This document shows, in pieces, positions 8,505 to 48,542 of a DNA stretch of 53,490 nt. The notes under the pieces were generated by a model. That model saw only the letters and a list, made by a program, of their open reading frames with translations, did not search any database and had not been told where the DNA came from. The position numbers were made by a program, and so were the translations under genes. The stretch lies in the UHGV virus genome UHGV-1366525. One strand, 5' to 3'. Numbering within the stretch: the stretch's first letter is position 1; each line of letters begins with the position of its first letter. Source of the DNA: a virus.

Positions 8505-8594
8505 GGATTTTAAGATATGATAGAGAGGAATTAAATATCCTCTTGAGATAATATTCACGGGAGAATATCATCCCTCTATTATATCTTAAAATCC
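8505..8594. repeat. palindromic hairpin element, copy 1 (arms GGATTTTAAGATATGATAGAGAGG / CCCTCTATTATATCTTAAAATCC)
   Basis: Inverted arms of 23-24 bp around a ~43-nt spacer that has its own internal pairing (CGTGAATAT / ATATTCACG). Intergenic, between the TerL stop and the portal start. Confidence 0.8.
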
Positions 8595-8617
8595 TTTCCG
8601 GTATATAATGACAAAAG

Positions 8618-10282
8618 TTATTCTCTCCATTCTTCTGGTGCTCCGTATGTCTGAATAAATTTTGCTTGTGCCTCTGCCGACATCTGCTCAAAGTCCTCCC
8701 ACATATCCGGATACCAATGAGTATAACGTATGAACCTACGCTCAGCCTTGGGTGTTTCCCCTGTGATTAGCTTGATTAGGCGGATTACACCTTGGCTGCA
8801 TTCGTCCACCATGTCATCATGTTTCCCATACGGGAATGACCTAAACTGTGTTATGACCTTGTCTCGCGGGGACAAAGTGGTCTGCATATACCAGTCGACA
8901 TCTTCTGCAGGCAGGTCATCTGCAATGTAATAATGCCCCGCTGTGACAAATGGAGAAATCGCGGAGGCTCGGGAGACCTTACCGCCCATAGGATTTACCG
9001 ACACAACGGGAGGAATAGAAGGGATATAGCGTAAGGTATCTGCAATTGCTGGCCCATTCGCTTTATCCTCTATGACCATCTCGTCAATCTCCGGAAACTC
9101 CTCAGCGAACCACTTTATTTTCTCTAATGTCTCTGTGAAGGTTAGACGCTTATTCACCTGATGATAGAGGTATATATCGCCTTCATAAATACCTCTCAGC
9201 CCCATCGCCACAAAGTCGTTTTCTTCTGTGCCCTTAAATGTCGCGTCAATAGATAACTGAAGATACTCAAACTTCTTACGGGCTTTAATCTCTTGCGGTG
9301 AGAGATGCGGAATATCTCGTTCTAACACGAAGTCTGTTCGGTGAAATTGACGGAATGTGGTTGCGTCAAATAAGTTGCCGGTAGCACCTGTGGGCCGTCC
9401 TTGATACAAGGAGTTCCACACACGCTCACCCTCAGCGGCTCGCACAACCATTTTCTTTGATTTTAGCCACTCATTGTCGTTACAAATTTTCTGTGGCAGA
9501 AGAGGGTCTCCAAGATGTGGGCCCATCAGAGAGTCTCCAAGGTGACGACCTAAAGGGTCAGGCCCTTCATTGGCGGCTACCTCGTCATACTCACAAGGGA
9601 GGTTAATATCTTTCCATATGAACTCTGACCAATTATCCTTAATAAACCCGACGACGTCGTTCTCTACCCACCTTGTCTGTATTACAATCAGCTTCCCATG
9701 CGGATAAATACGACTCTGCACAGATGGCCCCATCTCGGCAAGAATCTTCTTTATAATAACCTCGCTAGATGCCTCAGCAGCATTCTTGATAGGGTCATCA
9801 ATGATAAATAGCTCAGCACCAAAGCCTGTAATACCGGCATCCAAGCCAGCCGCACGACATTTACCGCCTTTCTCTGTTGCCCACAGCTCAGCTCTCTGCA
9901 GATTCTTATCCGGGCCTACATGCCAGATTAACGGAGCTAATCGATTAAACTTATCACGACAAGACTTAGAGAACCCTTCGGCAAAAGTGCTCTGATATGA
10001 GCATAAGATGACCTCACCTCTCGGATTGTTACCAAGAAACCATGCCGGTAAGGTCTCCGTCAACATATACGTCTTACCATGTCTCGGTGGAACAGACAAG
10101 AGCAATATATCAAACGCGTTCTCTGTCTTTGCTGACATAAACTCCTGTACTTGCTCTGTGACGTATTTGTGAAAATGTGTCATGCAAAAGCCTTCGTTGG
10201 CAAACTCAACGAAGGCCGGATATGAGCGCATAAGCTCTCTTCTTTTTAATTCTCCCTTTACACCTACAAAGACGTCACTCAT
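8618..10282 (-). CDS. terL: terminase large subunit (554 aa)
   Basis: Walker-A-like PRHGKTYML, Walker-B-like IIDDPIK, C-terminal nuclease-like acidic residues. Position upstream of the portal. Confidence 0.85.
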   Translation of the reverse strand: MSDVFVGVKGELKRRELMRSYPAFVEFANEGFCMTHFHKYVTEQVQEFMSAKTENAFDILLLSVPPRHGKTYMLTETLPAWFLGNNPRGEVILCSYQSTFAEGFSKSCRDKFNRLAPLIWHVGPDKNLQRAELWATEKGGKCRAAGLDAGITGFGAELFIIDDPIKNAAEASSEVIIKKILAEMGPSVQSRIYPHGKLIVIQTRWVENDVVGFIKDNWSEFIWKDINLPCEYDEVAANEGPDPLGRHLGDSLMGPHLGDPLLPQKICNDNEWLKSKKMVVRAAEGERVWNSLYQGRPTGATGNLFDATTFRQFHRTDFVLERDIPHLSPQEIKARKKFEYLQLSIDATFKGTEENDFVAMGLRGIYEGDIYLYHQVNKRLTFTETLEKIKWFAEEFPEIDEMVIEDKANGPAIADTLRYIPSIPPVVSVNPMGGKVSRASAISPFVTAGHYYIADDLPAEDVDWYMQTTLSPRDKVITQFRSFPYGKHDDMVDECSQGVIRLIKLITGETPKAERRFIRYTHWYPDMWEDFEQMSAEAQAKFIQTYGAPEEWRE

Positions 10283-10454
10283 GACTGAATCTCACTTTTC
10301 GTTTATTATCTTCTATAACGTCTGGACTAATTGTCATAGGCTTTTGTGGTGTATTGCTATTATCTTTTATGACAGAGGCTTTCTTGATTATAACCTCATT
10401 ACTCAGACGTATTCTATCTACCGTTCCGCTATTCGCAGTTGACATGTCACTCAT
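10275..10454 (-). CDS. small hypothetical protein (59 aa, below the ORF-track cutoff)
   Basis: Read by eye: AGGAGG then ATG, MSDMSTANSGTVDRIRLSNEV..., stop overlapping the TerL start by 8 nt. Confidence 0.4.
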   Translation of the reverse strand: MSDMSTANSGTVDRIRLSNEVIIKKASVIKDNSNTPQKPMTISPDVIEDNKRKVRFSHE

Positions 10455-10475
10455 AATACCTCCTTGATGTTGCAG

Positions 10476-11172: not shown

Positions 11173-11207
11173 TTTATCACCTCATTCTATTTTATGAAAA
11201 ATTTTGA

Positions 11208-11407: not shown

Positions 11408-11672
11408 ATAACTTAAATATTTGAAACCAAAATTCTTATGAGCATTAGAGCAGAATGTCATATATCCTCTCCTCTGAAGAGCCGCCCGGGCTCGAATTTT
11501 AATATGGTTCAAAATACATATAACCATCTCTCGAAGAGGTCGAGAGAGAAAGACCCCTCACAATCGAATAAGACAATGCCTCTCTCTTTCAGAGTTCTCT
11601 CTCAGTCCATGATGATGAACACTGCGCTCGACCCGGGTTTTCTCCGATAGGTGGAATCTCGAACAACCAAAC

Positions 11673-11707
11673 CGTCAGAGATGACCCGGAGCAAATCAGC
11701 CTTGGAA
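11673..11707. repeat. left arm of a perfect 35-bp inverted repeat (CGTCAGAGATGACCCGGAGCAAATCAGCCTTGGAA)
   Basis: Exact reverse complement of 12834..12868. Extends to 39/40 identity with flanks. Confidence 0.9.
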
Positions 11708-11725
11708 TCTCGTTCAGAAGTCAAG

Positions 11726-12823: not shown

Positions 12824-12833
12824 TGTAATGAGG

Positions 12834-12868
12834 TTCCAAGGCTGATTTGCTCCGGGTCATCTCTGACG
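12834..12868. repeat. right arm of the perfect 35-bp inverted repeat
   Basis: Reverse complement of 11673..11707. Confidence 0.9.
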
Positions 12869-13015
12869 ATTTAGTCACACTTAGACGAGACAATTAGGGA
12901 GTACAGAGTAATACAAGTAGAGGAGGTGAGTAATAGATAGAATAGAGCACGGTATCCCAAGGGGTTATTCTACCCAAATGAGCTGTAAAACTAAATACAT
13001 ATTAGGAGGTTAGTT

Positions 13016-13577: not shown

Positions 13578-13694
13578 ATACCGCTTAATTTTCATCGTCA
13601 TTTTATCCGGACAAGAGAGGAAAATCATCGCTTTTAGTCTTATACCGCTTATTTTCCTCGCTATTTTGCTCTGACAAGAGGGAAAATCCTCATC
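13578..13694. repeat. two ~53-bp imperfect direct repeats (iterons), 64-bp period: ATACCGCTTAATTTTCATCGTCATTTTATCCGGACAAGAGAGGAAAATCATCGC / ATACCGCTTATTTTCCTCGCTATTTTGCTCTGACAAGAGGGAAAATCCTCATC
   Basis: Read directly. Each unit also holds a short internal inverted repeat (TTTTCCTC / GAGGGAAAA). Confidence 0.8.
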
Positions 13695-13970
13695 ATATGA
13701 TATGATTTTGTATAATATAAGATAAAATCCCTTAGAGAAATAAAAAATTTCATCATATTATCATATATCATATTATCATATGACTTTTTAAAAATAAAAT
13801 ATAGACCTATAAATATTATAGTATATTATATAATATATAATAATATAAATAGTACTATATTATCTTAAAAATAAAAAGTCATATGATAATATGATATATG
13901 ATAATATGATAGAATTTTTATTTTTCCTATAGGGAATCATCTTATATTATACAAAATCATATCATATGAT
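13691..13970. repeat. ~280-bp AT-rich imperfect palindrome (outer 33-bp arms 13691..13723 and 13938..13970; inner 37-bp arms 13752..13788 and 13874..13910); candidate replication origin
   Basis: Both arm pairs are exact reverse complements. The centre TATATTATATAATATATA is itself palindromic. Iterons lie immediately upstream. Confidence 0.7.
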
Positions 13971-14071
13971 GAGAGATTATACCTTACGACCATATAACCA
14001 TTGTAATCCGGATATCTTGCAAATCTTATTCTCATTGTAACTACATAATTCAACATTAGGAGGCATAAATA

Positions 14072-16187: not shown

Positions 16188-16457
16188 ATGACAGAAGAGC
16201 AAAAGTTACAACTGAGATGTGTCACTGAGATGGAGTTGACAAATTTCTATATTGACCCACTCACAAAGTGTGACCTTCTCCGGAAACTGAGGCAGTTAGG
16301 TCTGCAAGAAGAAAAAGGTGCCTTCTCGGCGACAATCCGTGTGCTGCTGCAGTATTTCGCCGACTCTAAATTTGACGGCATTATTGATGACATCCACACG
16401 TCTATTCGCAGAGAGGTGCTTCTCACAAAATCCAAAAGTAAGAGGTCTACGCTATGA
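16188..16457 (+). CDS. small protein upstream of, and translationally coupled to, the MazF-like gene (candidate cognate antitoxin)
   Basis: ATGA overlap with the 16454 gene, the classic antitoxin-first layout. RBS AAGGAGAAAG. No sequence similarity to MazE was verified. Confidence 0.65.
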   Translation: MTEEQKLQLRCVTEMELTNFYIDPLTKCDLLRKLRQLGLQEEKGAFSATIRVLLQYFADSKFDGIIDDIHTSIRREVLLTKSKSKRSTL

Positions 16458-17140
16458 CAAATACCGTCTACATCCACAAAGGTGACATCTTTTGGCTGTC
16501 TCTCCCTCAGGCCTCTGCATCCTCTACCTCTATTCAGCAAGGGAACAGACCGTATATCGTTATCTCATCTAACTCCGGTTGCATCTCCAGTCCCGTGATT
16601 TCGGTTATCCCTTGTACGACGAAGTTTAAGTCCCTCTCTATTAACGTCACCTTATCGTACAATATCAAAGGGCTGCCGATGCAAGCGTTGTGTAATCAGA
16701 TTCAAACAATCCCGAGAGAGCTCCTCCTCTCTCATAATTATATCGGCAGAGTTACGGACATTGACCTCTCTAATATAGATGAGGCAATCTGTAAAGCATA
16801 TTCTCTCCACCAGACCACCCCATCCTCAACTCCTCTTGTCGATATGCAACAGCAGTTTACCCAAATAGTAGCAAAGATTAAAGAAGAATGCCTCTCCCTC
16901 ACAAAAGACTTGTCTTTTACGGAGAAGCTTATTCATCCGCAAGATAAAAAGCCGTATCTACGCAGAACTACTCTTGACAAGATTAGATTTATGGAAGATT
17001 GGCAATCTTCCATGACACGAGAAGAAGTTGCCGAGAAGCATCACTTTTCTTCGGTGTCGGTAGCAAGAGCAACGTATGGCAGATGGTCGCCATGGTATAA
17101 GAATTTGAGAAGGAGTAAGAGTAATGGAACCGGAGATTAA
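16454..17140 (+). CDS. MazF/PemK/Kid-family toxin domain (N-terminal ~115 aa) fused to a C-terminal HTH-containing domain
   Basis: KGDIFWLSLPQ...GNRPYIVIS...VIPCTTKFKSLSINVTL...MQALCNQIQTI aligns with E. coli MazF (GDLIWVDFDPT..RPAVVLS..CVPCTTQSKGYPFEVVL..VALADQVKSI) and Kid. The C-terminal MTREEVAEKHHFSSVSVARATYGRW is HTH-like. Confidence 0.8.
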   Translation: MTNTVYIHKGDIFWLSLPQASASSTSIQQGNRPYIVISSNSGCISSPVISVIPCTTKFKSLSINVTLSYNIKGLPMQALCNQIQTIPRELLLSHNYIGRVTDIDLSNIDEAICKAYSLHQTTPSSTPLVDMQQQFTQIVAKIKEECLSLTKDLSFTEKLIHPQDKKPYLRRTTLDKIRFMEDWQSSMTREEVAEKHHFSSVSVARATYGRWSPWYKNLRRSKSNGTGD

Positions 17141-20012: not shown

Positions 20013-20118
20013 TTTTAAGATATAATAGAAGGGAGGAATTAGAGTGCGGATTCTTTATCGAGACTCTATCTAATTCCTCCCTATTATATCTTAAAATCCA
20101 AATAGCTCGTATTCTGGG
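20013..20118. repeat. palindromic hairpin element, copy 2 (with 3' flank extension AAATAGCTCGTATTCTGGG)
   Basis: Arms TTTTTAAGATATAATAGAAGGGAGGAATTAGAG / CTCTATCTAATTCCTCCCTATTATATCTTAAAATCC. The extension is the reverse complement of the 5' extension of copy 3. Confidence 0.85.
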
Positions 20119-20178
20119 AGAGATTCTAAAAAGATTCATAATTCCGGAAAATCTGCATATAATATAATGTAGGAATTT

Positions 20179-24073: not shown

Positions 24074-24173
24074 GAGGGTATAGCTCAATTGGACAGAGCT
24101 CATGCGCAATCGTAAGTAGGAGTAGCTAACCGAACACACGATGACCCAAGTTCGATTCTTGGTACCTTCACCA
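24074..24173 (+). tRNA. aberrant 100-nt tRNA-like sequence (intron-containing tRNA or pseudo-tRNA; anticodon unassigned)
   Basis: Good acceptor stem GAGGGTA/TACCTTC, D arm GCTC-AATTGGACA-GAGC, T arm CCAAG-TTCGATT-CTTGG and CCA. The 45 nt between D and T arms contain no canonical 5-bp/7-nt anticodon hairpin when checked by hand. Confidence 0.4.
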
Positions 24174-31591: not shown

Positions 31592-31592
31592 T

Positions 31593-31699
31593 CCCAGAAT
31601 ACGAGCTATTTGGATTTTAAGATATAATAGAGAGGAATTATAGAGAGTCTCGAATAAATCCTCATCAAGAATAATGGAATCTCTATTATATCTTAAAAA
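31593..31699. repeat. palindromic hairpin element, copy 3 (with 5' flank extension CCCAGAATACGAGCTATTTGG)
   Basis: Arms GGATTTTAAGATATAATAGAGAGG / CTCTATTATATCTTAAAAA, spacer ~45 nt. Immediately after the DNA-polymerase stop. Confidence 0.85.
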
Positions 31700-41000: not shown

Positions 41001-41629
41001 TGCCAAGGAGAAGTAGCAACAAACTCGAGAAGCCCTGTCAATGAGCTCAAAAGTCCTTCTCCAAATTCTGCAAGACCTGCGAGAAGAGTGTTGCCGAATT
41101 GAGCCCACCAGCCCATATTATCTTTTCTAAGTTGCTCTATTTTCCGAGTTATCTCATATGAACGAGCTTCTCTCTGTTGTTGCAAGACACGAGTAACATA
41201 TTGCTGCTCTGTCATATTGCCGATAGAAACTTCTTCCCATTCACCTGTTTCTGGATTAAACTGATTTTCAAAGCGCTCCTCTTCTTTCTCATTGTCAAGG
41301 AAAGGAAGTTTTAATTCGAGCATTGCGGTTTGGTAATCATAATACAAATCGTTGTAATACTCTTTACTCAATGTCCTATCTTTATTAGCCTCAAGCAAGG
41401 CAACAAGTTCATCTTGTTCACCCAATTGAAATGCCGTCTGCCAAAGGTCATCTCTGAAATTCTGTGTGTTGTTAAATCGTTGTGCATAAAAATCATACGT
41501 GTTGGCATAAGAAGAAGAAGCAAATTTGTTTATTTGCTCTGCTCTATTATCAATGCCTTTCTTGTCTGTGGTTACTCCATTGGTATTGTTGTACTGTGTC
41601 AACAATGCCGCTGCTTGTTGAAGTGCCAT
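31964..41629 (-). CDS. giant virion-associated multidomain protein (3221 aa) with two HExxH zincin-like motifs and Gly/Ala-rich hydrophobic segments; candidate ejection/internal virion or tape-measure-like protein
   Basis: Uninterrupted 9.67-kb ORF with AGGAGG RBS. Motifs LVHELNHMLQYEY and VNHEFRHLMQEY. Hydrophobic GGIANSIGMMIPAIVANVATGGAAGVGMVAFYGG and GVIGMLMLGLGAILAATGVL. Last gene of the structural block. Confidence 0.85.
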   Translation of the reverse strand: MALQQAAALLTQYNNTNGVTTDKKGIDNRAEQINKFASSSYANTYDFYAQRFNNTQNFRDDLWQTAFQLGEQDELVALLEANKDRTLSKEYYNDLYYDYQTAMLELKLPFLDNEKEEERFENQFNPETGEWEEVSIGNMTEQQYVTRVLQQQREARSYEITRKIEQLRKDNMGWWAQFGNTLLAGLAEFGEGLLSSLTGLLEFVATSPWQLVGLGQQLFTGGQQTDILDAYVDYMANDSLTAMEKDNVRAALDEWERTSTLMKDIDGNITGWGKYLGGIANSIGMMIPAIVANVATGGAAGVGMVAFYGGVFSSNIVESSRANPDSPSAVVYLNTATKAAAEALIEVALDKLLGGTVSNKLLGLSGKAAGIKSVAKSLSKAAGWRYLAKSALQEGTEEFLQDFSTNCVDAFTQLIDEGWEYEKVTFQTLIDSFLVGAAASIVMSTGKVAWNKTKSAVTDGKGDIYIEQKQGEVERVGGLRRLAFDDMLKSVEESINQLTKEKVSPNKNLETAQEVYGILELLSGYYQGFDQQRIKNCERLLSKVRELENSYVQEYKRQNERPAMILTQETFTDIAKQATAPLVQARQREMLKVIGGIYKTDLHEMLSSAVSTKQLQEIEKAADEIKEKLVEANVKHVDAATNKNGETYTRDPDIIKVEEELAKNAKKRGKKPTNAEQNIDPESTKINNTRNELAKEYDWVFTTDGSVAVQIDNMVFVPLAWLRNYKKSEIYKFLQQDKVLTTILENKSMTSFLQELVKDFKQISGIKNVTREKALMEFLFNESFYTHFLLKNNGGNVHAFMDIVFRMYTIVDRMLKTETSEEGKNYIRQIKEQIRKTMRPATLKAILNWNIDPQAVGADAILNEADLQFVNQYNVRKQRASNALKPGKISNEYAEEAKTLLQIGNFNESERALIEEGLSEKATDEQRLIAVALLNEADVRFTTTDISKNILTTSMGNINTHMNWLLDANNRRATSTEIFAHLQALTKEVETIANYTGNRQMLEETQTILDYIKQNPNHDLAQIINNFKQFFVDVNNDMRQARSLVTKAAQAKNPGLFAMTLQACIDFGIEGKNSTQAKNDAINRFTREYGASPLEIMQGYIFTKASQYRKIEQEKLAMNVTSDADFVVRKLEQYLGTDYVVTPIYRRGTTNVNHLEEATSKAYDLLAQMLRGEQVSLVDFANNFTVINDTLNKDNLAELLKNPSAHAIELQAILAEADDVVTYIRESGESVVGDFAIVKKIAPQDLLVDTLLKGTIEEQDNMIRTILQNTDGVALTEILKLNTAYNPKLASILANWHVYSVDMSSTNLGLTNYENRRIEIDARQEGLLSTLVHELNHMLQYEYFISTGFSSENANQMTDLLAYVYNHYTPLVEYIAKRNGTTLDNIQGNLSSNKITSLSEDTRNILSYAAYRLVQGELWSEMNMHNGKLVKGFTRKEENGITYLVAPDGTRFRIPFRTVEAPAFSVDANAKLGPQAEEALLISTFLNVRQAIDEGPIDNENRKNTYHSRLTRSSATQVVWNLLRDGLDIITRSTVNIDEIVRNPQQYLREDLVARTANMTEGEVYSFLRTYIEQSNPGISLDRNAATHQYVIVNDNSFDDLLRKDILKKNNDTETDLQEKYKGKETRLDEIYSKEELDKLGVPGDIVVLVEPGLKNQFVVTSKYPDGAITIGYVQGRDNANFLDRVNHEFRHLMQEYNRFEGGFTVDFEMTDAMFKDIKKHAPSLFTEFRKVYPNSGLTDVDIAKRFVYYLVGGEQQAFGINPAIIQAKPAYVTIEGGKAKIFMPWYDAKTGEGMYDTEFISNKYEDEAEAWLNANDPERIKAAEEKTTKAKEKAKKPEKATFGKEKKGIEQLPAVTKTRKGKKITEGKYQYKNDRKFTKAKAEGTNLEYFYKKNGSNEMDPDLQNFVIKSTGHEKELPSELVYSIKRGKLTRQKFFEWFRNVDAKSVNDFTFDLINESFFNNKAIENMSQLEKLTTVDPAIFYASALVLRREGLSLASLVQENDINAFLKFINSLEGTKWKRKIENQAKKFNWYYVEDKNTGKLKRKEIEFANETAQWARVLMMQYYDGTLAGAFYAARAIRRVIRDYQNRDRNIVGSLDKEIKEGEDKTFAETFSTEEGYTGEYAEAARDIIGMYEEEVAEINRDAVIYALSTRQEKFYQQQAEQKAKSRTFKSDTERRALIRQSVDRAVDEYRNKLEGMTDQELALRYNYIRDAQNTDVSPTVEIDGREVPRKKYVQVRANIIRYANQLLKRVNEGQLVWSLLPEDVRNMFETVTTTDENGKKYQTRKLKEDTYLVGRGGQNIKDTTFAQRNEERLKAVARDARAGVYQNKDTAKRVKQLETERERRIAKDVEALNKSKGKIKAPENVKTTEFKVDKKKKKTSDTPNVFNIVSAVEMPDIVRKIFDTSFADMADTKVQFASVDENGNLYTKDSKEFKSRLQHEVANWNTFYEANRETLMNMTRQEMLDMVEFIQSGVATLNGPVNKLYAFQLFLLGYVIDAGRRNTNGWNMSDAELAIVQQTYERLASAYGSGLQAVSQMLNVINPLKQIQQRMLDEYNITELEAEPLYDAIEALQNAKTYEERKQRAVVVAEEMKRVENLFVEKSLEPKGFGKRWYKKLTSARYTFMLSSPMTWVRNQVSNVVNLVLNRAADAIGNIGMPKDSYKRADQWNLAKVKTSDEVKAFIDREIKNNPAFKDLFEGVNKYDYRGKEKTREQTLFISLITQALERKYAAEHRFDSKTANMISNFVNRMISDKAFIKLAATRYLGKMLTIEVEKGNVSLDQGLSHDVLNLFAESILAANTDYMRKRSALADMIDGLYDKHRTLYEVLHWFQPFINSSFNWFQEMLKYTPAGLIRSIYNMTKIEQTAQKLAERRRKGESVIDSRMAEFYARRDLGKGVIGMLMLGLGAILAATGVLKIEDDDDKFYMTVGDVKVDISNIFASSSILVGASLMQIGKKSATDIMDFIWNTYTEGFLLKDIIDRHRWDSSMYEAMLTETESILRSFVPQFVQLFVRALNNEKIKYSSGMKGMWERWLNSWIPTQPLGERYVDPYTGETQMKYALPFIGELLKGGLIGPRILWEYQSDMQEYAESLGMKKGAITANITVDGAQKELDWYEVNKKYGELNKIALANIKNQSHNVKMKDGSYRTLPWSKLSDEQKANVINRTMTQNSTIAKIWYWTKQGHKYYAENSLYQRLRAAGVTSGVYLGDRGFVE

Positions 41630-41707
41630 AAATAATACCTCCTGCCGGCTCTTCGCCGGTGATAATATTCTTTCAAGGATAAAATCCTTGAGAGTATCGC
41701 TTTTAGA

Positions 41708-41796
41708 GATTTTAAGATATAATGGGAAGGATTCGCAACAATCCTTGGGAGAATCATCGCGAATCTTTTTCGTCCTTCTATTATATCTTAAAATCC
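41708..41796. repeat. palindromic hairpin element, copy 4
   Basis: Arms GATTTTAAGATATAATGGGAAGGA / TCCTTCTATTATATCTTAAAATCC. Spacer carries GATTCGC...GCGAATC. Lies between the 475-aa gene stop and the giant gene start. Confidence 0.8.
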
Positions 41797-43215
41797 TGAT
41801 GTGCCTTTCTTATTAGATTGCTTATTCGATGCATAAGTATTTGCGGAATCTACAAGTTTTTGATATGCGGCGTTAATCTTAGCCTTCTGTGATTTGACAT
41901 AATCATTCATTTTCGCCAACAATCTCTTAGCCTCTGCCCGTGCTTCTTCTAATTGTTTCTCTAATCTGCTCTTCTCATAGGTATCACCTATTGTAAGACC
42001 ATCTATTTTGCTCTGAATACTTGCTACTCTTCTCTGTGCAGTCTGTTGTGCTTTAGACAAGGATTGATACTCACCATTAACAAGTTCGTTAGAAAGGCTT
42101 TCAAACTCATCAAAAGCACTCTTATTAGCATCATAGAACTCACGATATTGCTCAGCATTAAATTTCTTTTGTAGCTCATCAGTGAGTGTCTCGTAAGACT
42201 TCTGCACTTCTTTGGTGTATTCATCCCAAGTATGCTGACCTTCAATATTAAATGTCGGAGCAGAAAGTGTACCTGCAGTCTCATTACTAAGATACTCACC
42301 TTCATTATAAGCTTCGTCTGTAGATTCTCTACCAGCATAAGCCGCAGCAGTTCCGGCGTTTGTGCCTTTGAAAGTATAATTGAATGGGTCAGCACTCGCA
42401 AACCATGTACGCAACTCCGGATTTTCTTCAGCAAGCCAAGCATCGAACGATTTGACAGCAGTACCATCTGCTTTAGTATAACCTTCAGGTCGCATGTTCA
42501 TAAGTTGGTCAAAGTACTGAATACCTCTTTGCGTCAAAGCTCCAGAGTCATCAAACAAGAGAGTTGACAATTGTTCCCAAGGAAGAGCTTGACCGCTATC
42601 CGGGTCGACGAGCCAACCGAGTCCTTGACCTATTGCGATGTCCTCAGGTTTCTTTGCTTGTCCTGCATACTCTTTACCCTTGCCACCTTCTGTCGTCGTA
42701 GTACCTTCTTCTTTGTTCTCATAATACAAGGGAGTATCTGGGTCAGTAACAAGATGAGTAGAACCAACGAGCTCTTTGGCAAGATATTGATATGCGCTAT
42801 TATACAAGTTTGCAAAGTTTTCTGCTCTTTCATTCAGCGCAGTATCAATCATGCCTACTTCATCTTGATAAGTTTGAGCCACTTCACTCTGTGCATTCTG
42901 ATAGTCACGCATATAATTAGAATAAGCACTGAGCAAATCTTGCCGATTCATACCGATAAGTTCTTGTGTAGCACCAACATTTAAGCCTTGACCCATTAAA
43001 TTATTTTGCTGCTGAAAATTTGCCGCATAGGCATCTGCAATAGCTTTATTGTAATCAGTCTTTAAGGCGTCAGCTTGAGCCTCATAACCGAGGCTCGCAT
43101 TGCCGAAGAGCTGACGCCAAGAACGAATACCTGTCTGCTGTTTATCATTCTGCTCTATGATATTACGCATATCACTCGCTGTAATATTGATGCCATATGG
43201 TAATGTGTTAGCCAT
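41788..43215 (-). CDS. hypothetical virion protein (475 aa), Q/N-rich with C-terminal coiled coil
   Basis: ORF track. RBS GAGGG. Start overlaps the stop of the upstream gene. Confidence 0.75.
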   Translation of the reverse strand: MANTLPYGINITASDMRNIIEQNDKQQTGIRSWRQLFGNASLGYEAQADALKTDYNKAIADAYAANFQQQNNLMGQGLNVGATQELIGMNRQDLLSAYSNYMRDYQNAQSEVAQTYQDEVGMIDTALNERAENFANLYNSAYQYLAKELVGSTHLVTDPDTPLYYENKEEGTTTTEGGKGKEYAGQAKKPEDIAIGQGLGWLVDPDSGQALPWEQLSTLLFDDSGALTQRGIQYFDQLMNMRPEGYTKADGTAVKSFDAWLAEENPELRTWFASADPFNYTFKGTNAGTAAAYAGRESTDEAYNEGEYLSNETAGTLSAPTFNIEGQHTWDEYTKEVQKSYETLTDELQKKFNAEQYREFYDANKSAFDEFESLSNELVNGEYQSLSKAQQTAQRRVASIQSKIDGLTIGDTYEKSRLEKQLEEARAEAKRLLAKMNDYVKSQKAKINAAYQKLVDSANTYASNKQSNKKGTSGF

Positions 43216-46200
43216 TAGCGTACCCTCTCTTTGAGTTCATATTTTACGCTTAAAGAATTAAGTCTCAACTGCGCCTGTGTATCTACAGCAACATCATTTG
43301 ACAATGAATATTGGAAATACACACAATGCATAATGTTCATGCGACGAATATAAGTGCGAAGGTCAGAAATTTTTATCTCTACAACCTCTGACTTTTCAGG
43401 GTGATAATAGTCACGGAATGCTTTGGTTGTAAGCTTTGCCGTCATAACGCTATCACCTTGAGCACTCATATTTATTGCCTTAATCAACTTGTAATTGTTA
43501 ATCTGCCCGAAGTGTAATCTTTGTGAAGTAAAGCTCCAACGAATAATAGGTTCTGCATATCTGAATATATTGCGTCCGCCATTATCTTTGTAGACATTAC
43601 CATCGAGTGCACCCGCTACGATGTCATCGAGATAAGCAATGGAGTTATTCTCAATCTCTCTGTCACACCAGACAAAGTTGCGTCCATACAAAGGAAGTTT
43701 CGGAGGAGGGAACACAATCTCAAGTTGTTCTGTGGGATTGAAGTCGATTTGCTGTATGAAATGCAACCTTTCACCTACATCAACTTTAATAATAGGATAC
43801 TGTGTAGACCATCTCCACCATGTGCCAGTTCGTGTGTCGAATGCAAGACATACATTGTACATATATCTATAGAAGATAAGCCAATACTTGTATGTCGCAA
43901 TTTTAATCATCGGGTCATAACCTTTAGGCGCCGAATCATCCCAAGGCATAAGTCTTGCCGACGGAATAATATCATTGTAGAAATGTGTATACTCGCTTTG
44001 TATTGCATCTGACAAATATTTGATGGTACGTTCAGTCGTAGCAACAAAATCTTGTGGCTCCATGGCAGCGATACCTTTTGGTGCACTAAATAAAATTACT
44101 TGTCCATCAAGCGCTGTAACGACATCACTGCCATCTCTGCAACCAAGCGGAATCTTTGATTTTACAGGTGCGGTATAGGCAACTTTACCTGTGTTAAGTT
44201 CAACAGGTGAGACGTAGTAAATCTCATTATCTGTGAATACTGCCATACTCGCGTCAGAGATAGGATGCAAGTTTGTAATCTTTTGTGAGAATGGCTGCTC
44301 ATTACTCTTTGGCAAATATAACAAGAAGTCTCGTCCTTCCTCACTAAAGAGCTTTTCTACATCTCGCCTTGTTTCTGTGACTTCTAACAAGAATCTACCG
44401 TCCGGATTAACAAAGGAGAAGAAGTATTCACTAAGTTGCATAAAATGGTCCGGAGTTGTATAATTCATTTTCGGCAGGCCATCAGAAGTCGCATCTAATA
44501 ACTCATCAAGCTCAAGAGATATATCTGGTTGCAAAGAACTCGTCCAAAGAGTACCGTCAATAACATACCATGTACCGAGAGAGCCATAATATAATGGAGT
44601 AACTATTCGCTCGATACCGAGTTTGCCCCAATAATTTATGAAACCACTCGGTAATGCATCTCCGGCTTTCCACTCACGATACTCACCTGTTTCTATATCT
44701 ATTAGAACAGGCTTTGGGATATTCTGCCATTCTGTAGTAGTCGGCCAATCATCGCCGAGTGTCCAACCCGTTGGTGCGGCAGGATAACTTGTCGTACTAC
44801 TTCTTAATCTTACAAGTGTAGAGATATTTAATGGTCCACTAATAATTGTCCAATTATTAGAGCCATCATTTGCCATATGCTGAATGAGATAGTTATCATC
44901 ATTCATCAATACTCTATCACCTGACCGGATTATTCCGACAGTAGACTTGCCATCTTTTGCTTTTATCGCCTTACCACTCAACACAATTTCTGTGGAATTG
45001 AAGTAGTTGAATACAACAAGATTATCACCAGAAACAAGAGAACGTTCATCGTCATCAACATATTGTGACAATTCACCATTCCTCGGCAATTCAACTATCT
45101 CACCACCTATATATAAATATTGGTCGGTAATATAGTCTGTGCTATTCTGTTTCATCTTAAACTGATTAGACAGCTTGGGAATTACAGTTCTGGTATAAGT
45201 CGTATCTTCTGCATTCTCATTTGTGAAACTTATTATAGAATACACATCTTGTGGGACATTGTCAGCGCCTGTGAGCTGATTATATGCTGCATATAATGTG
45301 AAGGTTATCTTATCGCCACTATACGTCGGGTCACTTACAACATAATCAAAATTCTCACAAGGACTTACAAAGGTTCTATCAGAATAACTCGCACCCTCAG
45401 AATCTAAAAGTAATTGTGCCGTACGTTCAAGAATAGATGTTGCCGACATATGACAGATATAATAATAGCCTTCTTCATCTGACAATGTATTTGTTTCTAC
45501 TTTAAGATTTCCGGCTTTATATGAAGTGTCCCAACTGCCATCGGCCCAATTAAAATTACCGAAATAATTTTGTGCCTCTATAGCTGTATAATTAAGAGTT
45601 TCATTGAGCGGAGTCAAACGAATTTGCTGGTTAGGATAGAAATTCTCATCTGTGCTGTTTACATGTGAGATTTTGTATCGAGTAGTTCTATTCAAAGAAT
45701 AACGCAACAAAGAAGAGGCATCTGGTATTGTAGTAGTACCGCCACCATTATTTGTAAAAGACCAATCTCCATATACAGCGCCTGATACAAATTCCCAATA
45801 AGCATTACTCCCTTCACCAGTAGGCAAAGATTCTAAATTATTATTCACCAATGAACGATAACAAAATAGAGTACCACTTCTATCAATGGAGGCGACTTCT
45901 CCTTTTCCATAAGCGTACCCTTGTATCCATTGCCATCTTGGGTCACTTGTGTCCATAGGTGTAGGAGTTATACCAACTATATCTCCTTCAGTAATATTTC
46001 CATATGGGTCGGGCGTCTTACCATCAGTGCCGAATCTGAAAATATAGAATGGAGAGTTACTTTCTGTGAATTGTATTAGGTCATTACTTCTTATTAGAGG
46101 AGAACGTTGATTGTAATCTCTTTTATAGATAAAAGCATAAATCGCCGTAGTTACAAGAGAGTTTGGAGAGACAAGTTCTCCAGCAAGAGGAGTCATAAGA

Positions 46201-47660
46201 GATATGACAGGCGCAGCAGTTTTATTATCTGGCGTAGGTGTTACATACTTAAATTTGATATTATAATTATCGCCCATCAAGTATTGCCAATTAACACCTG
46301 CACCATCAGCATTATAATTCAACAAATAAAATGCAGATTGAACACCAGAAGTACCTGCTAACCATTCTGAATACATGACAGGAAGATATGCTGTAGAACC
46401 CGTGGTCAATCCATTGTTCTTAGCCCATACTACGTAACAGAATTGGTCTGATGTCATGAAATCACCACGAGGTGTCTTTGTCACATCAATCTCATCTATT
46501 ACAACCGTTCCATTTACAACAAAGATACCACCCTGCCCTGTGGTCTTTTGTGCATATCTACAATAGTTATGAATGACCCAAGAAAAAGAATCTGCTGACA
46601 CGAAATCATCAGAATCTTGTGCCACTAATTTACACATGGCAAGACCTGTTCTCGTGAATGCCACAGCAGATAAACCATCTTTTGTAAGACAAGGATTACC
46701 AACTATTTCTTGAAGAACCGGCAGATTCCGCCAAGAACTGCCATCAAAACTTACCTCGATTGTGTCAAAAATAGGCGAATACCGCAAGATAACCATTGCT
46801 CTTGTAGTTTCAACCATATCAATAATATAGTCATTACCTATTTGACTATAGGGATAAATTAAGGTATCTTTGCTATTTGGATTGAGAGTAGTATCATACA
46901 GATGTTTTGAACTATTCTGTGTCTGTTCACTATTCAGAGAGACAGACACTCTCTTACCACTCATTTGTTGAAAATTTATACCAGAAACAGTAGAATACAA
47001 GTAACGTTTCTTGTGAGTTTCTGTCAAATAATTATTGCTCTCAAGCGAACTGGTAATACCATTTGTTACCAAATCTGTTACAGGCACATAAACATACTTT
47101 TCAGCTTGCTCAAAATAATTGCCTACGACATTGTAGCAAACGAAAGCCATATCTGCAAACCAGAAGTAGATTTTATCTTCAATCTGTGCAGGTGTAATCT
47201 TTGGAATTGCATCAACTCCGGCTTCTGTGTATTTAATCGCCCAAGACATATAATTGTATTGGCCTTCATCCGGATTCATAACGAGCTCATGAGTAATACA
47301 CTCAAGCTTATAATATAAATAAGTATTCTCTAAATCTGCTCCTTCGAGCGTTTCGAGGGTCTTATAACCTGTATCAGTGTATTCTCTGAAATACTTGTAA
47401 ACTCGAAATCCAAACTGCCCAAAATACCATTCGTAAATGATATTCGTCTTGTCATCATAGAATCTAAGAGGTGGTCTGCTTGTAAGTACGTCATTGTCAC
47501 TTACAAACATATTCTCTATAGCCGCGAAAGTCTGCTGGTCTATGCTAACCTCATTACGATTATCACATAGACCTTTGAACTGAGCGGTATTAAAGAATCC
47601 GGCACTGTTTGACGGAATAGACACCTCCATAGGTTCTCTATTAACAGTGCGATTTGCCAT
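43215..47660 (-). CDS. large hypothetical virion/tail protein (~1481 aa)
   Basis: Long ORF. ATG at 47660 with GGAGGTG at 7-nt spacing; the ORF track extends to a TTG at 47666. Confidence 0.8.
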   Translation of the reverse strand: MANRTVNREPMEVSIPSNSAGFFNTAQFKGLCDNRNEVSIDQQTFAAIENMFVSDNDVLTSRPPLRFYDDKTNIIYEWYFGQFGFRVYKYFREYTDTGYKTLETLEGADLENTYLYYKLECITHELVMNPDEGQYNYMSWAIKYTEAGVDAIPKITPAQIEDKIYFWFADMAFVCYNVVGNYFEQAEKYVYVPVTDLVTNGITSSLESNNYLTETHKKRYLYSTVSGINFQQMSGKRVSVSLNSEQTQNSSKHLYDTTLNPNSKDTLIYPYSQIGNDYIIDMVETTRAMVILRYSPIFDTIEVSFDGSSWRNLPVLQEIVGNPCLTKDGLSAVAFTRTGLAMCKLVAQDSDDFVSADSFSWVIHNYCRYAQKTTGQGGIFVVNGTVVIDEIDVTKTPRGDFMTSDQFCYVVWAKNNGLTTGSTAYLPVMYSEWLAGTSGVQSAFYLLNYNADGAGVNWQYLMGDNYNIKFKYVTPTPDNKTAAPVISLMTPLAGELVSPNSLVTTAIYAFIYKRDYNQRSPLIRSNDLIQFTESNSPFYIFRFGTDGKTPDPYGNITEGDIVGITPTPMDTSDPRWQWIQGYAYGKGEVASIDRSGTLFCYRSLVNNNLESLPTGEGSNAYWEFVSGAVYGDWSFTNNGGGTTTIPDASSLLRYSLNRTTRYKISHVNSTDENFYPNQQIRLTPLNETLNYTAIEAQNYFGNFNWADGSWDTSYKAGNLKVETNTLSDEEGYYYICHMSATSILERTAQLLLDSEGASYSDRTFVSPCENFDYVVSDPTYSGDKITFTLYAAYNQLTGADNVPQDVYSIISFTNENAEDTTYTRTVIPKLSNQFKMKQNSTDYITDQYLYIGGEIVELPRNGELSQYVDDDERSLVSGDNLVVFNYFNSTEIVLSGKAIKAKDGKSTVGIIRSGDRVLMNDDNYLIQHMANDGSNNWTIISGPLNISTLVRLRSSTTSYPAAPTGWTLGDDWPTTTEWQNIPKPVLIDIETGEYREWKAGDALPSGFINYWGKLGIERIVTPLYYGSLGTWYVIDGTLWTSSLQPDISLELDELLDATSDGLPKMNYTTPDHFMQLSEYFFSFVNPDGRFLLEVTETRRDVEKLFSEEGRDFLLYLPKSNEQPFSQKITNLHPISDASMAVFTDNEIYYVSPVELNTGKVAYTAPVKSKIPLGCRDGSDVVTALDGQVILFSAPKGIAAMEPQDFVATTERTIKYLSDAIQSEYTHFYNDIIPSARLMPWDDSAPKGYDPMIKIATYKYWLIFYRYMYNVCLAFDTRTGTWWRWSTQYPIIKVDVGERLHFIQQIDFNPTEQLEIVFPPPKLPLYGRNFVWCDREIENNSIAYLDDIVAGALDGNVYKDNGGRNIFRYAEPIIRWSFTSQRLHFGQINNYKLIKAINMSAQGDSVMTAKLTTKAFRDYYHPEKSEVVEIKISDLRTYIRRMNIMHCVYFQYSLSNDVAVDTQAQLRLNSLSVKYELKERVR

Positions 47661-48445
47661 TACCAACCACCTCCAATATGCAATGTACGTTGAGACCTGA
47701 AACTCGTATTGTCAATTCTTGCAAGGAATATCTCGTACTCATTTCTGAAAATCGCTGCCTTCTGTTCATCATCAATCTTCAAACATTGAGATACAATATA
47801 AGAAGGAATAGCATCACAAACATCAGCAGGAGCTGTGATTTTATCCGCGTCCGCGAGGTCTTTTGTGAAAAAGAACCAACGAGCATGATAAGGAATACGA
47901 TACTCACCATCACAATGACAAAGAACTTGGTTATAACCATAATACTCTATCACCTCATCACCCACCTCTTTGAATTTCGGCACATCTACGAGGACACCTT
48001 GGACAAAGAGAGGAGGTGCTTTGTACTCCGCAACATCATCACTGAACGAGATGAAATCCTCGGGAAACTCAATAGGCTCGTCTACGAAAGACAAAGTGTG
48101 CCATTTCTCCCAAAAGGCTTTCTTCTTCTCATACATATCATCACCGGGCATGGGCGTCATTTCTTTGTGTTCCGGACAATCACAATAAACACCAAACTCG
48201 TGAGTGTAATATTTCCAAGCATCATGTTTCTTCCATACTTTGACAATAAGGAATTCCTCATGTGGCATAATAGACGAGCAAATTTGTGTCATAGCCTCAT
48301 TTGCATAGTAAGGAAAGTTAGAGAGGAAGTTCTGCTGATTAGCTTCCTCTTCTGTCAGATTTAACTTTGCCAATGCGTTTTCTTTGATATAACCCCAAGT
48401 ATAATACATATAAACCTCACTTGCCGACTCGAACGGCATCATCAC
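47660..48445 (-). CDS. hypothetical virion protein (261 aa)
   Basis: ORF track. Follows hairpin element copy 5. Confidence 0.7.
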   Translation of the reverse strand: MMMPFESASEVYMYYTWGYIKENALAKLNLTEEEANQQNFLSNFPYYANEAMTQICSSIMPHEEFLIVKVWKKHDAWKYYTHEFGVYCDCPEHKEMTPMPGDDMYEKKKAFWEKWHTLSFVDEPIEFPEDFISFSDDVAEYKAPPLFVQGVLVDVPKFKEVGDEVIEYYGYNQVLCHCDGEYRIPYHARWFFFTKDLADADKITAPADVCDAIPSYIVSQCLKIDDEQKAAIFRNEYEIFLARIDNTSFRSQRTLHIGGGW

Positions 48446-48452
48446 TCTAATA

Positions 48453-48542
48453 GATTTTAAGATATAATAGGGATTCGTTTATATTTCTTGATGAGATATT
48501 CGAGAATCCCCGCGAATCCTCTCTATTATATCTTAAAATCCC
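48453..48542. repeat. palindromic hairpin element, copy 5
   Basis: Arms GATTTTAAGATATAATAGGG / CCTCTCTATTATATCTTAAAATCCC. Spacer carries GGATTCG...CGCGAATCC. Directly downstream of the capsid gene stop. Confidence 0.8.

Follow-up and report, generated by a model that had tools for sequence, protein, structure and literature searches.

A polar palindromic cassette conserved at gene-module borders in a family of uncultured phages

The five dispersed hairpins of the window, the 53,490-nt stretch of phage DNA that was analysed, are copies of a polar cis-element kept by a whole phage family at the borders of gene modules. The element is a palindromic DNA cassette of roughly 90-110 bp, and the same cassette was recovered in approximately 40 related phage contigs. 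The comparative data tentatively point to a partly mobile transcription-boundary cassette that may act as a promoter or operator recognised in double-stranded DNA.

Organisation and position of the copies

All five hairpins reported by the initial annotation were recovered where it had placed them, each copy of TTTTAAGATATAATAG…CTATTATATCTTAAAA being intergenic. The core TTTTAAGATATAATAG starts on the plus strand at 8508, 20013, 31615, 41710, and 48455 and its reverse complement at 8576, 20081, 31683, 41778, and 48523, with an arm-to-arm offset of exactly 68 nt in five of five copies. Eleven half-sites with at most two mismatches were observed against 0.06 expected from shuffled sequence, and long hairpins with 46-52-nt loops were confined to the five copies (c1 to c5) and an AT-rich repeat at 13.7 kb. 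Copy c1 (8505-8594, plus strand) belongs to the 84-bp class, with arms at 8508-8522 and 8577-8591. The orientation of c2 (20013-20119, minus strand, including a 23-nt flank block at 20097-20119) is opposite to that of the other four, namely c1, c3 (31592-31698, plus strand, including a 23-nt flank block at 31592-31614), c4 (41708-41796, plus strand), and c5 (48453-48541, plus strand). The arms had been described as perfect over 19-24 bp, which does not hold, as c1 and c4 each contain a G.T mismatch, the c2 stem is bulged (16 perfect pairs, a 3-nt bulge, and 13 more pairs), and c5 has one mismatch in a stem of 18-21 pairs; the c3 stem has 19 pairs. Across copies the stems measure 16-28 bp and the loop region 44-54 nt.

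The spacers, initially said to differ between copies, can be aligned once c2 is reverse-complemented and have a central box in common: TTGAGATAATAT in c1 (8543-8554, plus strand, interior positions 21-32), TCGATAAAGAAT in c2 (20050-20061, minus strand), TCGAATAAATCC in c3 (31650-31661, plus strand), TTGGGAGAATCA in c4 (41745-41756, plus strand), and TTGATGAGATAT in c5 (48488-48499, plus strand), the last displaced by 2 nt from its position elsewhere. Other earlier observations stood: GGATTCG..CGAATCC is common to c4 and c5, the palindromic element has polarity, and the c2 flank block is the exact reverse complement of the c3 block, over 23 nt rather than the 21 nt first given. Over 62 nt, c2 and c3 are 95% identical in inverted orientation and flank the replication module as a pair. 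A -10-type hexamer is present in every arm, although the left arm of c1 carries TATGAT and not the TATAAT that had been assigned to all. A 3' U-tract is absent from all five copies, as had been noted, and the sequence beyond the second arm is TCC.., AGG.. or TCA.. on either strand; the reported flanking pattern of T then A was not seen at the copies.

The description of all copies as lying between co-directional genes was roughly right, while several of the gene labels attached to it, three of the contexts among them, required correction. Copy c1 separates the TerL stop (8618) from the portal ATG (8368), with its polar half toward the portal gene. Copy c2 follows not the capsid gene but a 143-aa ORF (stop codon at 20002) located after the DNA ligase gene, and precedes the ThyX/replication operon. 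Copy c3 begins immediately past the stop of the DNA polymerase gene (31591), and a conserved 96-aa gene has its ATG (31717) 18 nt beyond the end of the right arm. This copy also lies at the 3' end of the giant gene, from which it is separated by a canonical intrinsic terminator (31872-31902, minus strand) made of a 13-bp stem and a T-run. Directly upstream of the giant gene (ATG at 41629) lies c4, not c3; its polar half is directed toward the giant gene and its right arm contains the TAA stop codon (41788-41790) of a 475-aa gene. Copy c5 is located between a second canonical terminator (48584-48612, minus strand, 13-bp stem then TTTTT), which follows a 422-aa gene and lies 43 nt away on the upstream side in the minus-strand sense, and a 250-aa gene, with 43 nt separating c5 from the true ATG of the next gene (48409, MYYTWGY). 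Copies c1, c2, and c4 are 78-135 nt upstream of the following gene, and the genes on either side of c1 to c4 are co-transcribable without a terminator between them. The copies bracket modules, the replication genes by c2 and c3 and the giant gene by c3 and c4. Downstream of c2 is a promoter-like box (20135-20163, plus strand, TTCATA-17-TATAAT, family consensus TTGAATATAATATAAT) that is kept in relatives and followed by a ribosome-binding site.

Conservation across the phage family

The carriers are uncultured phages of 50-55 kb, in which cassettes with arms (GA)TTTTAATATATAATA occupy three syntenic intergenic sites: after the DNA polymerase gene, before the ThyX/replication operon, and before the giant gene. 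Each phage genome contains only 1-5 cassettes, mostly at these sites, and gene order and orientation around the three core sites were identical in all relatives examined, although DNA polymerase identity among carriers is 36-69%. The 85 unique copies of the comparative set fall into two length classes, of 74 (50 copies) or 75 bp (7 copies) and of 84 (16), 85 (10) or 86 bp (2), with no copy of 76-83 bp among them. The box TYGATWAAWTAT is off-centre and fixed 20 nt from the left arm in both classes, and the extra 10 nt of the longer class always lie on the opposite side of the central box from the fixed arm. An extra flank block of approximately 20 nt is present in the clade of the window.

Between orthologous pairs, the left arm diverges by 0.2% and the right arm by 1.1%, compared with 4-12% for the interior and 22-30% for the flanks, corresponding to cassette evolution 20-100 times slower than that of the flanks. 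A search for the core in related phages, proposed in the initial annotation, was thus positive, with arms that diverge by 0.2-1.1% around more variable interiors. Synteny at 36-69% DNA polymerase identity combined with such slow evolution argues for purifying selection, not decay after insertion. The two-arm pattern had zero matches in 185,579 bacterial and archaeal species genomes. Searches with Rfam covariance models, at gathering thresholds and at E<=1, gave no match overlapping a copy.

Each genome keeps to a single arm variant (G7 in the window, TTCTAAT in one clade, TATCAT in another), a uniformity that could reflect gene conversion rather than co-evolution with a factor. Two distant relatives (L143 and L147) carry a diverged cassette without TATAAT, in a spacer with two convergent terminators at its borders. 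Among the genes within 10 kb of the DNA polymerase gene, none co-varies with the cassette, and a sigma region 3/4-like gene is patchy among relatives.

Folding and pairing of the arms

Folding of each copy as RNA, a check suggested at the outset, gave stable structures for all five on either strand (-26 to -40 kcal/mol, z-scores -4 to -8). The conserved stem consists of A/T (A-U) pairs only; in the window, pairing continues past the conserved arms through copy-specific complementary sequence, for example GGGAGGAATTAGA with TCTAATTCCTCCC in c2, and the interiors show self-complementarity above shuffled sequence (mean z-score -1.4). No strand bias was detected, the better-folding strand being the one in 41 copies and the other in 43. 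The arms vary too little to be very informative on compensatory change; 28 of 40 arm mismatches are not wobble pairs, and clade-wide compensating double changes number three against at least 28 unpaired non-wobble changes. Arm position 7 is unpaired in all three copies of one relative (L118) and likewise in L132 and L141. Neither covariation in the central box (Y22 versus R35) nor pair covariation in the inner stem was found. The arms therefore appear to be conserved as sequence and not as pairs, with unpaired variants tolerated. Sequence-type conservation of the arms, equal folding of the strands, 10-bp length steps, and the L143 and L147 copies favour DNA-level readings over a pure RNA hairpin. 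The initial annotation had listed four options and chosen none; among these, the comparative data favour a promoter/operator or regulator site.

A predicted transcription boundary

In the preferred reading, still a tentative one, the cassette would be read on double-stranded DNA as a boundary of transcription units. It has three conserved parts: two inverted 17-bp A/T-only boxes (GATTTTAAKATATAATA), each with a -10-type hexamer, and the off-centre box at its constant distance from one arm. Read outwards, the conserved half resembles a sigma-A-type promoter (TCRAGA or TTGATA as a -35-like hexamer, TATTAT after 18 nt, and a purine after another 7 nt), which is predicted to direct transcription outward into the next module. 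The other arm, present at two distances presumably one helical turn apart, may provide an upstream contact or a second binding site, and a sequence-specific factor may bind the boxes besides, or in place of, RNA polymerase. Under read-through transcription the boxes must pair, so that a 16-28-bp AU-rich hairpin would form as a by-product; it may be cleaved or may stabilise the upstream mRNA, a role held to be secondary.

Several features of the copies are consistent with outward promoters. In a consensus scan, TCGAGA-18-TATTAT points out of c2 and c3 with 9 of 12 matches to the sigma-70/sigma-A consensus, and the outward reading of 74-bp copies is TTGATA-18-TATTAT. The 18-nt-spacing side is directed toward the downstream gene at c1, c2, c4, and c5, and family-wide at the c2 and c4 sites. 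Variation between T and C among clades at arm position 3 falls on the predicted +1, where the transcribed side is always a purine. In the window, c5 has a canonical terminator on one side and the next gene on the other, as does its counterpart in the relative L194; the two are in opposite orientations, and in both an 18-nt-spacing side is toward the gene. A ribosome-binding site directly follows the arm in 74-bp copies at the c3 site and is found 0-20 nt past the arm in L194 and c3-type copies. Furthermore, the box read here as the -35, TTGATAAAAT, also forms the -35 of a canonical TTGATA-N16/17-TATAAT promoter beside the c4 element in L116, L125, and L145.

Other features count against the promoter reading. 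The gene-facing -35 match is weak (TCRAGA, 3-4 of 6), and at the c2 and c4 sites the better -35 reading, TTGATA, has its back to the downstream gene. In every genome, the fixed-spacing side of the c3 copy is directed back into the DNA polymerase gene, and in 84-bp c3 copies, including that of the window, the side toward the 96-aa gene has a 28-nt spacer. The c2 and c4 sites already have separate conserved promoter-like boxes, which follow the cassette at variable distances of 2-90 nt on its downstream side. In both arms the perfect TATAAT reads inward, which turns the two hexamers toward each other, and this inward reading is without a -35. The L143 and L147 cassettes lacking TATAAT and the failure to find a co-varying gene point the same way. 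Promoter-consensus matches are common in AT-rich DNA, with 63 observed against 43-57 expected.

Alternative explanations

The main rival reading, possible if on balance unlikely, is that the element acts as an RNA hairpin, with RNase III or another double-strand-specific factor cutting or binding the AU-rich 16-28-bp stem of polycistronic transcripts, an activity which would separate module mRNAs, stabilise the upstream 3' end, or tune translation of the next gene. Strong folding of all copies on either strand agrees with this, as do the copy-specific extension of stems, the self-complementary interiors, and a stem length comparable to the approximately 20 bp or more expected of such a hairpin in a transcribed intercistronic region. 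The element is evidently transcribed at the c2 and c4 sites, because there the first arm adjoins or overlaps the preceding stop codon with no canonical terminator in between; at the c3 site, a ribosome-binding site lies at the foot of the stem. The frequency of about one copy per module recalls the RNase III sites of phage T7, and RNase III targets are also documented in phage SP82, as cited in PMC4838370. However, double-stranded RNA alone does not require arms that are near-invariant across very divergent genomes, and the excess of unpaired over compensating changes, the position-7 mismatch fixed in L118, and the absence of both inner-stem covariation and strand preference run counter to this reading. 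Furthermore, an RNA stem leaves the 10-bp step between length classes unexplained, the direction of the polar interior with respect to the mRNA is not the same at c3 as at c2 and c4, and the c5, L194, L143, and L147 copies are downstream of canonical terminators. A Rho-independent terminator at operon ends is very improbable. The c2 and c4 cassettes do fall precisely in the interval from the upstream stop codon to the following promoter-like box, the expected place for a terminator, but the A-U-only stem, the 44-54-nt loop, and the missing U-tract depart from the GC-rich stem and 3-8-nt loop of such a signal, no copy was called as a terminator by a consensus scan, and the ribosome-binding site of the next gene comes directly after the cassette at the c3 site. 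Canonical GC-rich terminators with T-runs are used elsewhere by the phage, and the fact that two of them adjoin copies argues that the cassette is not one, upholding the initial judgement.

A protein-bound DNA site with a non-transcriptional role, in replication or priming, as a fork or recombination hot spot for module exchange, or for a genome-organising or packaging protein, is unlikely. Sequence-specific arms, 10-bp length steps, and the lack of strand bias fit it equally; copies bracket functional modules, c2 and c3 form the inverted pair around the replication module, and the L143 and L147 element is in a spacer that is probably not transcribed. On the other hand, a typical, AT-rich, iteron-bearing candidate origin is already present at 13.5-14.0 kb, no partner gene was found, and the constant order and orientation of modules in all relatives examined give no sign of inversion or shuffling at the elements; the recombination breakpoint between two close strains falls approximately 100 nt past c2 and not within it. 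Less probable still is a selfish MITE- or REP-like element that spreads within phage genomes and survives in gaps, with no function or with accidental regulatory effects. Terminal inverted repeats (17-bp arms), a small uniform size (74/75 or 84-86 bp), and two size classes, as in Correia elements, would suit it, as would insertion polymorphism: c1 is missing from the TerL-portal spacer of 16 relatives, c5 is missing in L191 and L192 and inverted in L194 relative to the window, and L107 has an extra copy, its two copies being identical over 74 nt plus flanks. The duplicated unit takes in approximately 20 nt of flank. Against it, no direct repeat indicative of target-site duplication surrounds any of the five window copies, no transposase or RAYT-type gene was detected among the subset of ORFs scanned with Pfam and PHROGs, the two-arm pattern had no match in the bacterial and archaeal genomes, and the three syntenic sites retain conserved orientation and slow evolution. 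The MITE option raised initially thus receives limited support, from presence/absence and the orientation flip at non-core sites, and is opposed by the lack of target duplication, transposase, and host copies.

Comparison with known elements

Among known systems, promoter-early stem-loops (PeSLs) are composite promoter-terminator motifs of T4-like phages (PMC4122927, PMC2839356). Like the cassette, they are short, repeated, conserved regulatory units at gene or module borders that differ slightly in sequence from lineage to lineage, and they combine a sigma-70-type promoter (predicted, for the cassette) with a stem-loop. Both are tied to gain or loss of adjacent DNA and so may be counted as mobile regulatory cassettes. 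Promoter-like boxes and a stem-loop coincide at module borders here as well, with a different architecture: PeSLs place a small GC stem-loop beside a separate TTGACA-N17-TATAAT promoter, whereas in the cassette the -10-type boxes themselves form the palindrome arms, a third box lies inside the 74/84-bp palindrome, lengths are quantised, and the 1-5 copies per genome are mostly syntenic, with no indel or shuffling of neighbouring genes seen around the three core sites.

The T7 R sites are RNase III processing hairpins, roughly one per gene group. Early-mRNA RNase III sites of the Bacillus phage SP82 are attributed to Panganiban & Whiteley 1983 in PMC4838370. Both resemble the cassette as dispersed intercistronic non-terminator hairpins, approximately one per gene group and often near promoters, that are long enough for an RNase III substrate. 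They are defined by cleavage and structure, whereas the cassette has a near-invariant sequence in which pairing is not specifically preserved, varies by site in its orientation to the mRNA, and in some copies sits behind terminators. The Correia elements (CREE) of Neisseria are multifunctional MITEs whose hairpin transcripts are cut by RNase III. They share with the cassette a palindromic, intergenic form with terminal inverted repeats, two size classes, an internal box (protein-binding in Correia), outward-facing promoter elements in the ends (predicted in the cassette), and transcripts that fold to hairpins. They number hundreds per bacterial chromosome, with TA target duplications and decay after insertion; the cassette, in contrast, has 1-5 copies per phage genome, lacks a target duplication, and shows both deep synteny and strong purifying selection.

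The temperate coliphages 186 and P2 have face-to-face promoter pairs with ordinary -35 elements, which make up the one developmental switch of each genome. Their opposite-strand -10 boxes, like those of the cassette, face each other across a few tens of bp; the cassette differs in having 3-5 module-border copies, an inward reading without a -35, and arms that are exact inverted copies. Mycobacteriophage stoperators and the start-associated (SAS) and extended (ESAS) sequences of Cluster K are 13-17-bp single sites or loosely spaced inverted repeats in tens of copies. They are likewise short conserved intergenic repeats oriented to transcription and presumed to be recognised by a factor of the phage or host, unlike the cassette in that the latter is one composite 74/84-bp palindrome in few copies. 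In phage N4, the virion RNA polymerase uses hairpin promoters with stems of 5-7 bp and loops of 3 nt, present at early genes only. N4 and this phage have in common conserved hairpin-forming sequences and a giant protein of more than 3,000 aa. An N4-type hairpin promoter was rejected on the 16-28-bp stem, the 44-54-nt loop, the position at middle/late module borders, and the giant protein, whose ORF has no Pfam, PHROG or PDB match and no RNA polymerase motif.

Returning to the promoter or operator reading, new copies of the cassette would arise occasionally, in either orientation, which would make it a mobile regulatory unit as well. For this phage family, the likeliest role of the cassette, still a tentative one, is to set where transcription units start and stop.

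Element copies and genome organization

All five hairpin copies of the initial annotation were located by sequence inspection at its coordinates (c1, 8505..8594; c2, 20013..20119; c3, 31592..31698; c4, 41708..41796; c5, 48453..48541). Half-sites of the 16-mer TTTTAAGATATAATAG and its reverse complement, allowing at most two mismatches, numbered 11 in the window compared with 0.06 expected from shuffles, and the second arm begins exactly 68 nt after the first in all five copies. Each copy folds strongly on either strand, with energies of -26 to -40 kcal/mol. A hairpin scan of the window for other long inverted repeats with a loop of 25-90 nt returned only one, in the 13.7-kb AT-rich region. The 16-mer alone was found in 75 unrelated IMG/VR contigs, with one occurrence apiece, a frequency expected by chance, and the paired pattern had a single match outside this lineage, in AT-rich coding sequence of the contig L094, which was judged to be a chance match. 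Chance origin of the copies was thus ruled out by the excess of half-sites together with the restriction of the paired pattern to the lineage (plus L094). The flank extension described for copies 2 and 3 was also recovered, 23 nt on the c3 side (31592-31614) being the exact reverse complement of 20097-20119 on the c2 side. Other details required correction: the arms, described as perfectly complementary throughout, carry one G.T mismatch each in c1 and c4, and the c2 stem consists of 16 bp, a bulge, and 13 bp; the spacers, thought to differ between copies, proved homologous after c2 was reverse-complemented; and the flanking bases do not read as T then A.

The genome in the window is complete and circularly permuted. 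The metagenomic contig ERZ1026977.88 (L092), 93-98% identical to it, spans its ends, continuing from 45412..53490 directly into 1..1091, and in this contig the three checkable copies (c2, c3, and c5) were essentially unchanged. Genes are arranged in three blocks. A minus-strand block encodes TerL, the portal protein, and a collagen-like protein; a plus-strand block carries small early genes and ligase, followed by ThyX, exonuclease, tRNAs, helicase, primase, and DNA polymerase; and a second minus-strand block ends in ORFs of 1483 aa (43215-47666) and 3221 aa (31964-41629). Neither of these two ORFs had a detectable family (Pfam and PHROG searches were negative, and RNA polymerase motifs were absent), and the giant 3221-aa ORF had no sequence match in PDB. 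A giant ORF of 2,700-3,400 aa is kept at the end of the late block in all relatives.

Copy c1 separates TerL from the portal gene, which starts at ATG 8368 (MDRIDLYLQ), the TTG at 8398 in the mechanical ORF list being too far upstream. Copy c2 is positioned 3' of a 143-aa ORF that itself follows the ligase gene and 5' of the replication operon, c3 after the DNA polymerase gene and before a conserved 96-aa gene overlapping the 3' end of the giant gene, and c4 directly upstream of the giant gene. Copy c5 is located between a canonical terminator (48612-48584) and a gene starting at ATG 48409 (MYYTWGY, with a GAGG ribosome-binding site); the listed GTG at 48445 is too far upstream. A second canonical terminator (31902-31872) ends the giant gene, and the phage therefore employs ordinary terminators where they are needed.

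Several additional features were observed in the window. A 987-aa protein (1890-4853, -; also 1293-1904), encoded downstream of the capsid-region genes, consists mostly of Gly-X-Y repeats of the collagen type (Pfam Collagen, E=8e-81), which dominate the direct-repeat output. A fifth tRNA-like sequence of 97 nt (24074-24170, +) adjoins the four-tRNA cluster; it scored 41.8 bits with Rfam, received no ARAGORN call, and may carry an insertion or be degenerate. An early 228-aa protein (16454-17140, +) carries a PemK/MazF-like endoribonuclease domain at its N terminus (Pfam E=6.5e-14), and in the related contig L096 a weak MazE/AbrB-like ORF lies directly upstream of the c2-site element. A 49-nt inverted repeat (11666-11714 / 12827-12875; 92% complementary) encloses 1.1 kb with a family-less 269-aa ORF, and this segment could be mobile or capable of inversion. 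Where the two early gene blocks diverge, a large AT-rich inverted repeat (13689-13973; 113-nt arms, 85% complementary) contains multiple ATCATATTATCATAT units, two face-to-face TGTATAAT extended -10 boxes, and a lone degenerate half-site of the element (13855-13870); this region is probably an early promoter and/or origin. The box GGGAATCATCTTA occurs both at 13929-13944 in this region and, in inverted orientation, beside c5 at 48557-48571, and may be a shared regulatory motif. Directly upstream of the giant gene (~41630-41665, -), a small hairpin CnGCGAAGAGCnG is followed by AAGGAGTATA and then the ATG. The hairpin is kept family-wide at the same position (L111-L145, L186-L194) and may be a translational or stability signal.

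Distribution among relatives

No close cultured, annotated relative of the phage was found and megablast returned no match; the best identities to Firmicutes phages were at most 34% for TerL and at most 30% for DNA polymerase. More than 1,200 DNA polymerase homologues were recovered from metagenomes. Single-protein scans of IMG/VR detected no relatives of the DNA polymerase or of a 475-aa protein, and alignment-based scans were required to recover them. Relatives identified through DNA polymerase (36-69% identity, contigs up to 55 kb, gene order unchanged) share the element with slightly altered arms, e.g. TTCTAATATATAATAG or TTTTAATATATAATA, at three of the intergenic sites of the window: before the ThyX operon, after DNA polymerase, and before the giant gene. 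A search with the 1483-aa protein yielded further relatives with more c4-site copies and one c5-site copy. The c5 copy is missing in L191 and L192 and has the opposite orientation in L194, the TerL-portal spacer of 16 relatives (TerL 55-80% identical) contained no copy, and L107 has one additional identical copy. The overall picture is one of three old syntenic sites with occasional gain of new ones. In the tail-gene region of L191, a reverse transcriptase (RVT_1; 2206-3249) adjoins DUF6273 genes, suggesting a diversity-generating retroelement that the window does not carry.

None of 185,579 bacterial and archaeal species genomes (GTDB) contained the exact two-arm pattern, nor did IMG/VR; the element is therefore not a host repeat, and a host-derived MITE was rejected on the zero matches in GTDB.

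Anatomy and conservation of the cassette

Cassette anatomy was derived from 85 unique copies, all placed in one orientation. The order is [GA]TTTTAATATATAATA, 20 nt, the central box TYGATWAAWTAT, a variable stretch ending in AA(AA), and TATTATATATTAAAA[TC]. The distance from the central box to the left arm is constant in every copy. Lengths are quantised at 74 (n=50), 75 (n=7), 84 (n=16), 85 (n=10), and 86 (n=2) nt, with no copy of 76-83, and the additional 10 nt always fall on the right-arm side of the central box. Single genomes can carry both length classes, which also occur at all three sites. Orthologous pairs diverge by 0.2% in the left arm and by 1.1% in the right; divergence climbs from 4% to 12% from left to right across the interior and reaches 22-30% in the flanks. 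The element is therefore polar and strongly constrained.

Proposed sequence recognition at the DNA level

The pattern of conservation favours a sequence recognized as DNA over one selected to form an RNA stem. Copies in any one genome share their arm variant, which is G7 in the window, C3 in the nearest clade, and TATCAT in a further clade. Position 7 is unpaired in every copy of the related contig L118, and 28 of 40 arm mismatches are non-wobble. Throughout the family, the polar interior at c3 runs in the opposite sense, relative to the mRNA, to that at c2 and c4. The 10-bp step between the length classes points the same way, as it suggests a possible face-of-the-helix constraint. In the distant relatives L143 and L147, a diverged copy lacking TATAAT is situated between two convergent canonical terminators. 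An inner stem-loop (TYGA..TCRA) was rejected, as it showed no covariation and C22 is commoner with A35 than with G35, and so was a strand-specific RNA, since top and bottom folding energies of 86 copies had no bias (41 vs 43 copies). There is, however, opposing evidence: copies in the window extend pairing by copy-specific sequence, and interiors are moderately self-complementary (mean z = -1.4). Palindromy is thus somehow maintained, which could be due to selection or to hairpin-templated repair.

Proposed function and alternative explanations

Cassettes are positioned at the junctions of transcription units. The stop codon of the upstream gene abuts or falls within the first arm at the c2 and c4 sites, and a separate conserved promoter-like box (TTGAATATAATATAAT at c2, GATATATAATAAAGATATTC at c4) follows 2-90 nt further on. 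At c3 the arm is directly succeeded by the next gene's ribosome-binding site, and at the c5 site (the window and L194) the cassette is the sole conserved non-coding sequence between the terminator and the next gene. Read outward, the conserved half has a -35-like TCRAGA on one strand or TTGATA on the other, an 18-nt spacer, TATTAT, and a purine 7 nt past it; the TTGATAAAAT box also serves as the -35 of a canonical promoter adjoining some c4 copies. Based on this promoter grammar and these positions, the explanation we favour, tentatively, is that the cassette may be a DNA-level boundary unit with putative promoter or operator function. The 84-bp copies have the 18-nt spacing on one side only, which faces the downstream gene at c1, c2, c4, and c5 but not at c3. 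This exception is a weak point of the explanation, as are the poor -35 in the gene-facing direction, the extra promoter boxes downstream at c2 and c4, and the perfect TATAAT that faces inward.

A more speculative and rather improbable version is a new kind of DNA-acting transcription-unit insulator. Two inverted -10-type boxes, one or two extra helical turns apart, would face each other and each capture RNA polymerase holoenzyme or a phage factor, with the third box contributing polarity. The bound complex would halt transcription running on from the upstream module and would release it, or start it anew, in the direction of the next one, such that punctuation would arise from a promoter-like roadblock and not from an RNA terminator. 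Such a design would explain the perfect inward TATAAT, the quantised lengths, arms kept as sequence and not as pairs, and the diverged copy between convergent terminators.

Among the alternatives to a boundary unit, an RNase III-type processing or stability hairpin is the most plausible, since any transcript across the cassette has to fold into the stem, and the maintained palindromy would be consistent with it; given the unpaired and non-wobble arm positions, we consider it unlikely. A DNA site bound by protein for some purpose other than transcription would share the evidence for recognition on DNA and seems less likely again. A selfish MITE-like element is slightly more doubtful still, with no target duplication, no transposase among the ORFs scanned, no host copy, and strong purifying selection. 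An intrinsic terminator is very improbable, as the stem is A/U-only and lacks a U-tract, and canonical terminators adjoin some copies.

Several specific candidates were rejected. A known RNA family or tRNA-like gene found no Rfam match at gathering thresholds or E<=1 and no ARAGORN call. The window encodes a 136-aa protein (21451-21861, +) with sigma-70 regions 3 and 4 only (Pfam region 4 E=4e-17), which was dismissed as the cognate factor on its detection in just 8 of ~80 related loci searched; among genes lying up to 10 kb from the DNA polymerase gene, phyletic profiling revealed no family that tracks element presence. Family, PDB, and motif searches gave no support to the giant or the 1483-aa protein as a hidden hairpin-promoter RNA polymerase. 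An upstream activator site at fixed spacing was discarded because the distance from cassette to downstream promoter-like box varies from 2 to 39 nt.

Comparison with known elements and significance

The RNase III sites of T7 and SP82 and the Correia elements of Neisseria are near analogues of the cassette. It has some features in common with each of these and with a third near analogue, and fits none; in contrast to all three, its -10-type boxes are themselves the palindrome arms, it has a third, asymmetric box and a quantised length, and its copies are few and deeply syntenic. The third analogue is the PeSL composite promoter-terminator cassette of T4-like phages (PMC4122927).

The cassette is not unexpected in principle, but it gives a large uncultured phage family a regulatory signature that is clean, testable, and previously undescribed. 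With few copies, deeply syntenic sites, two discrete lengths, and arm variants supplied by nature, it is an unusually clean test case for telling whether a conserved palindrome exerts its effect at the DNA level, as a promoter, operator, or insulator, or as a processing hairpin in RNA. Should the boxes turn out to be transferable promoters or insulators for use in Firmicutes-type hosts, they would provide compact genetic parts. For a family abundant in metagenomes and without a cultured member, one 74/84-bp cassette that demarcates the replication, giant-gene, and structural modules offers a direct handle on the transcription programme.
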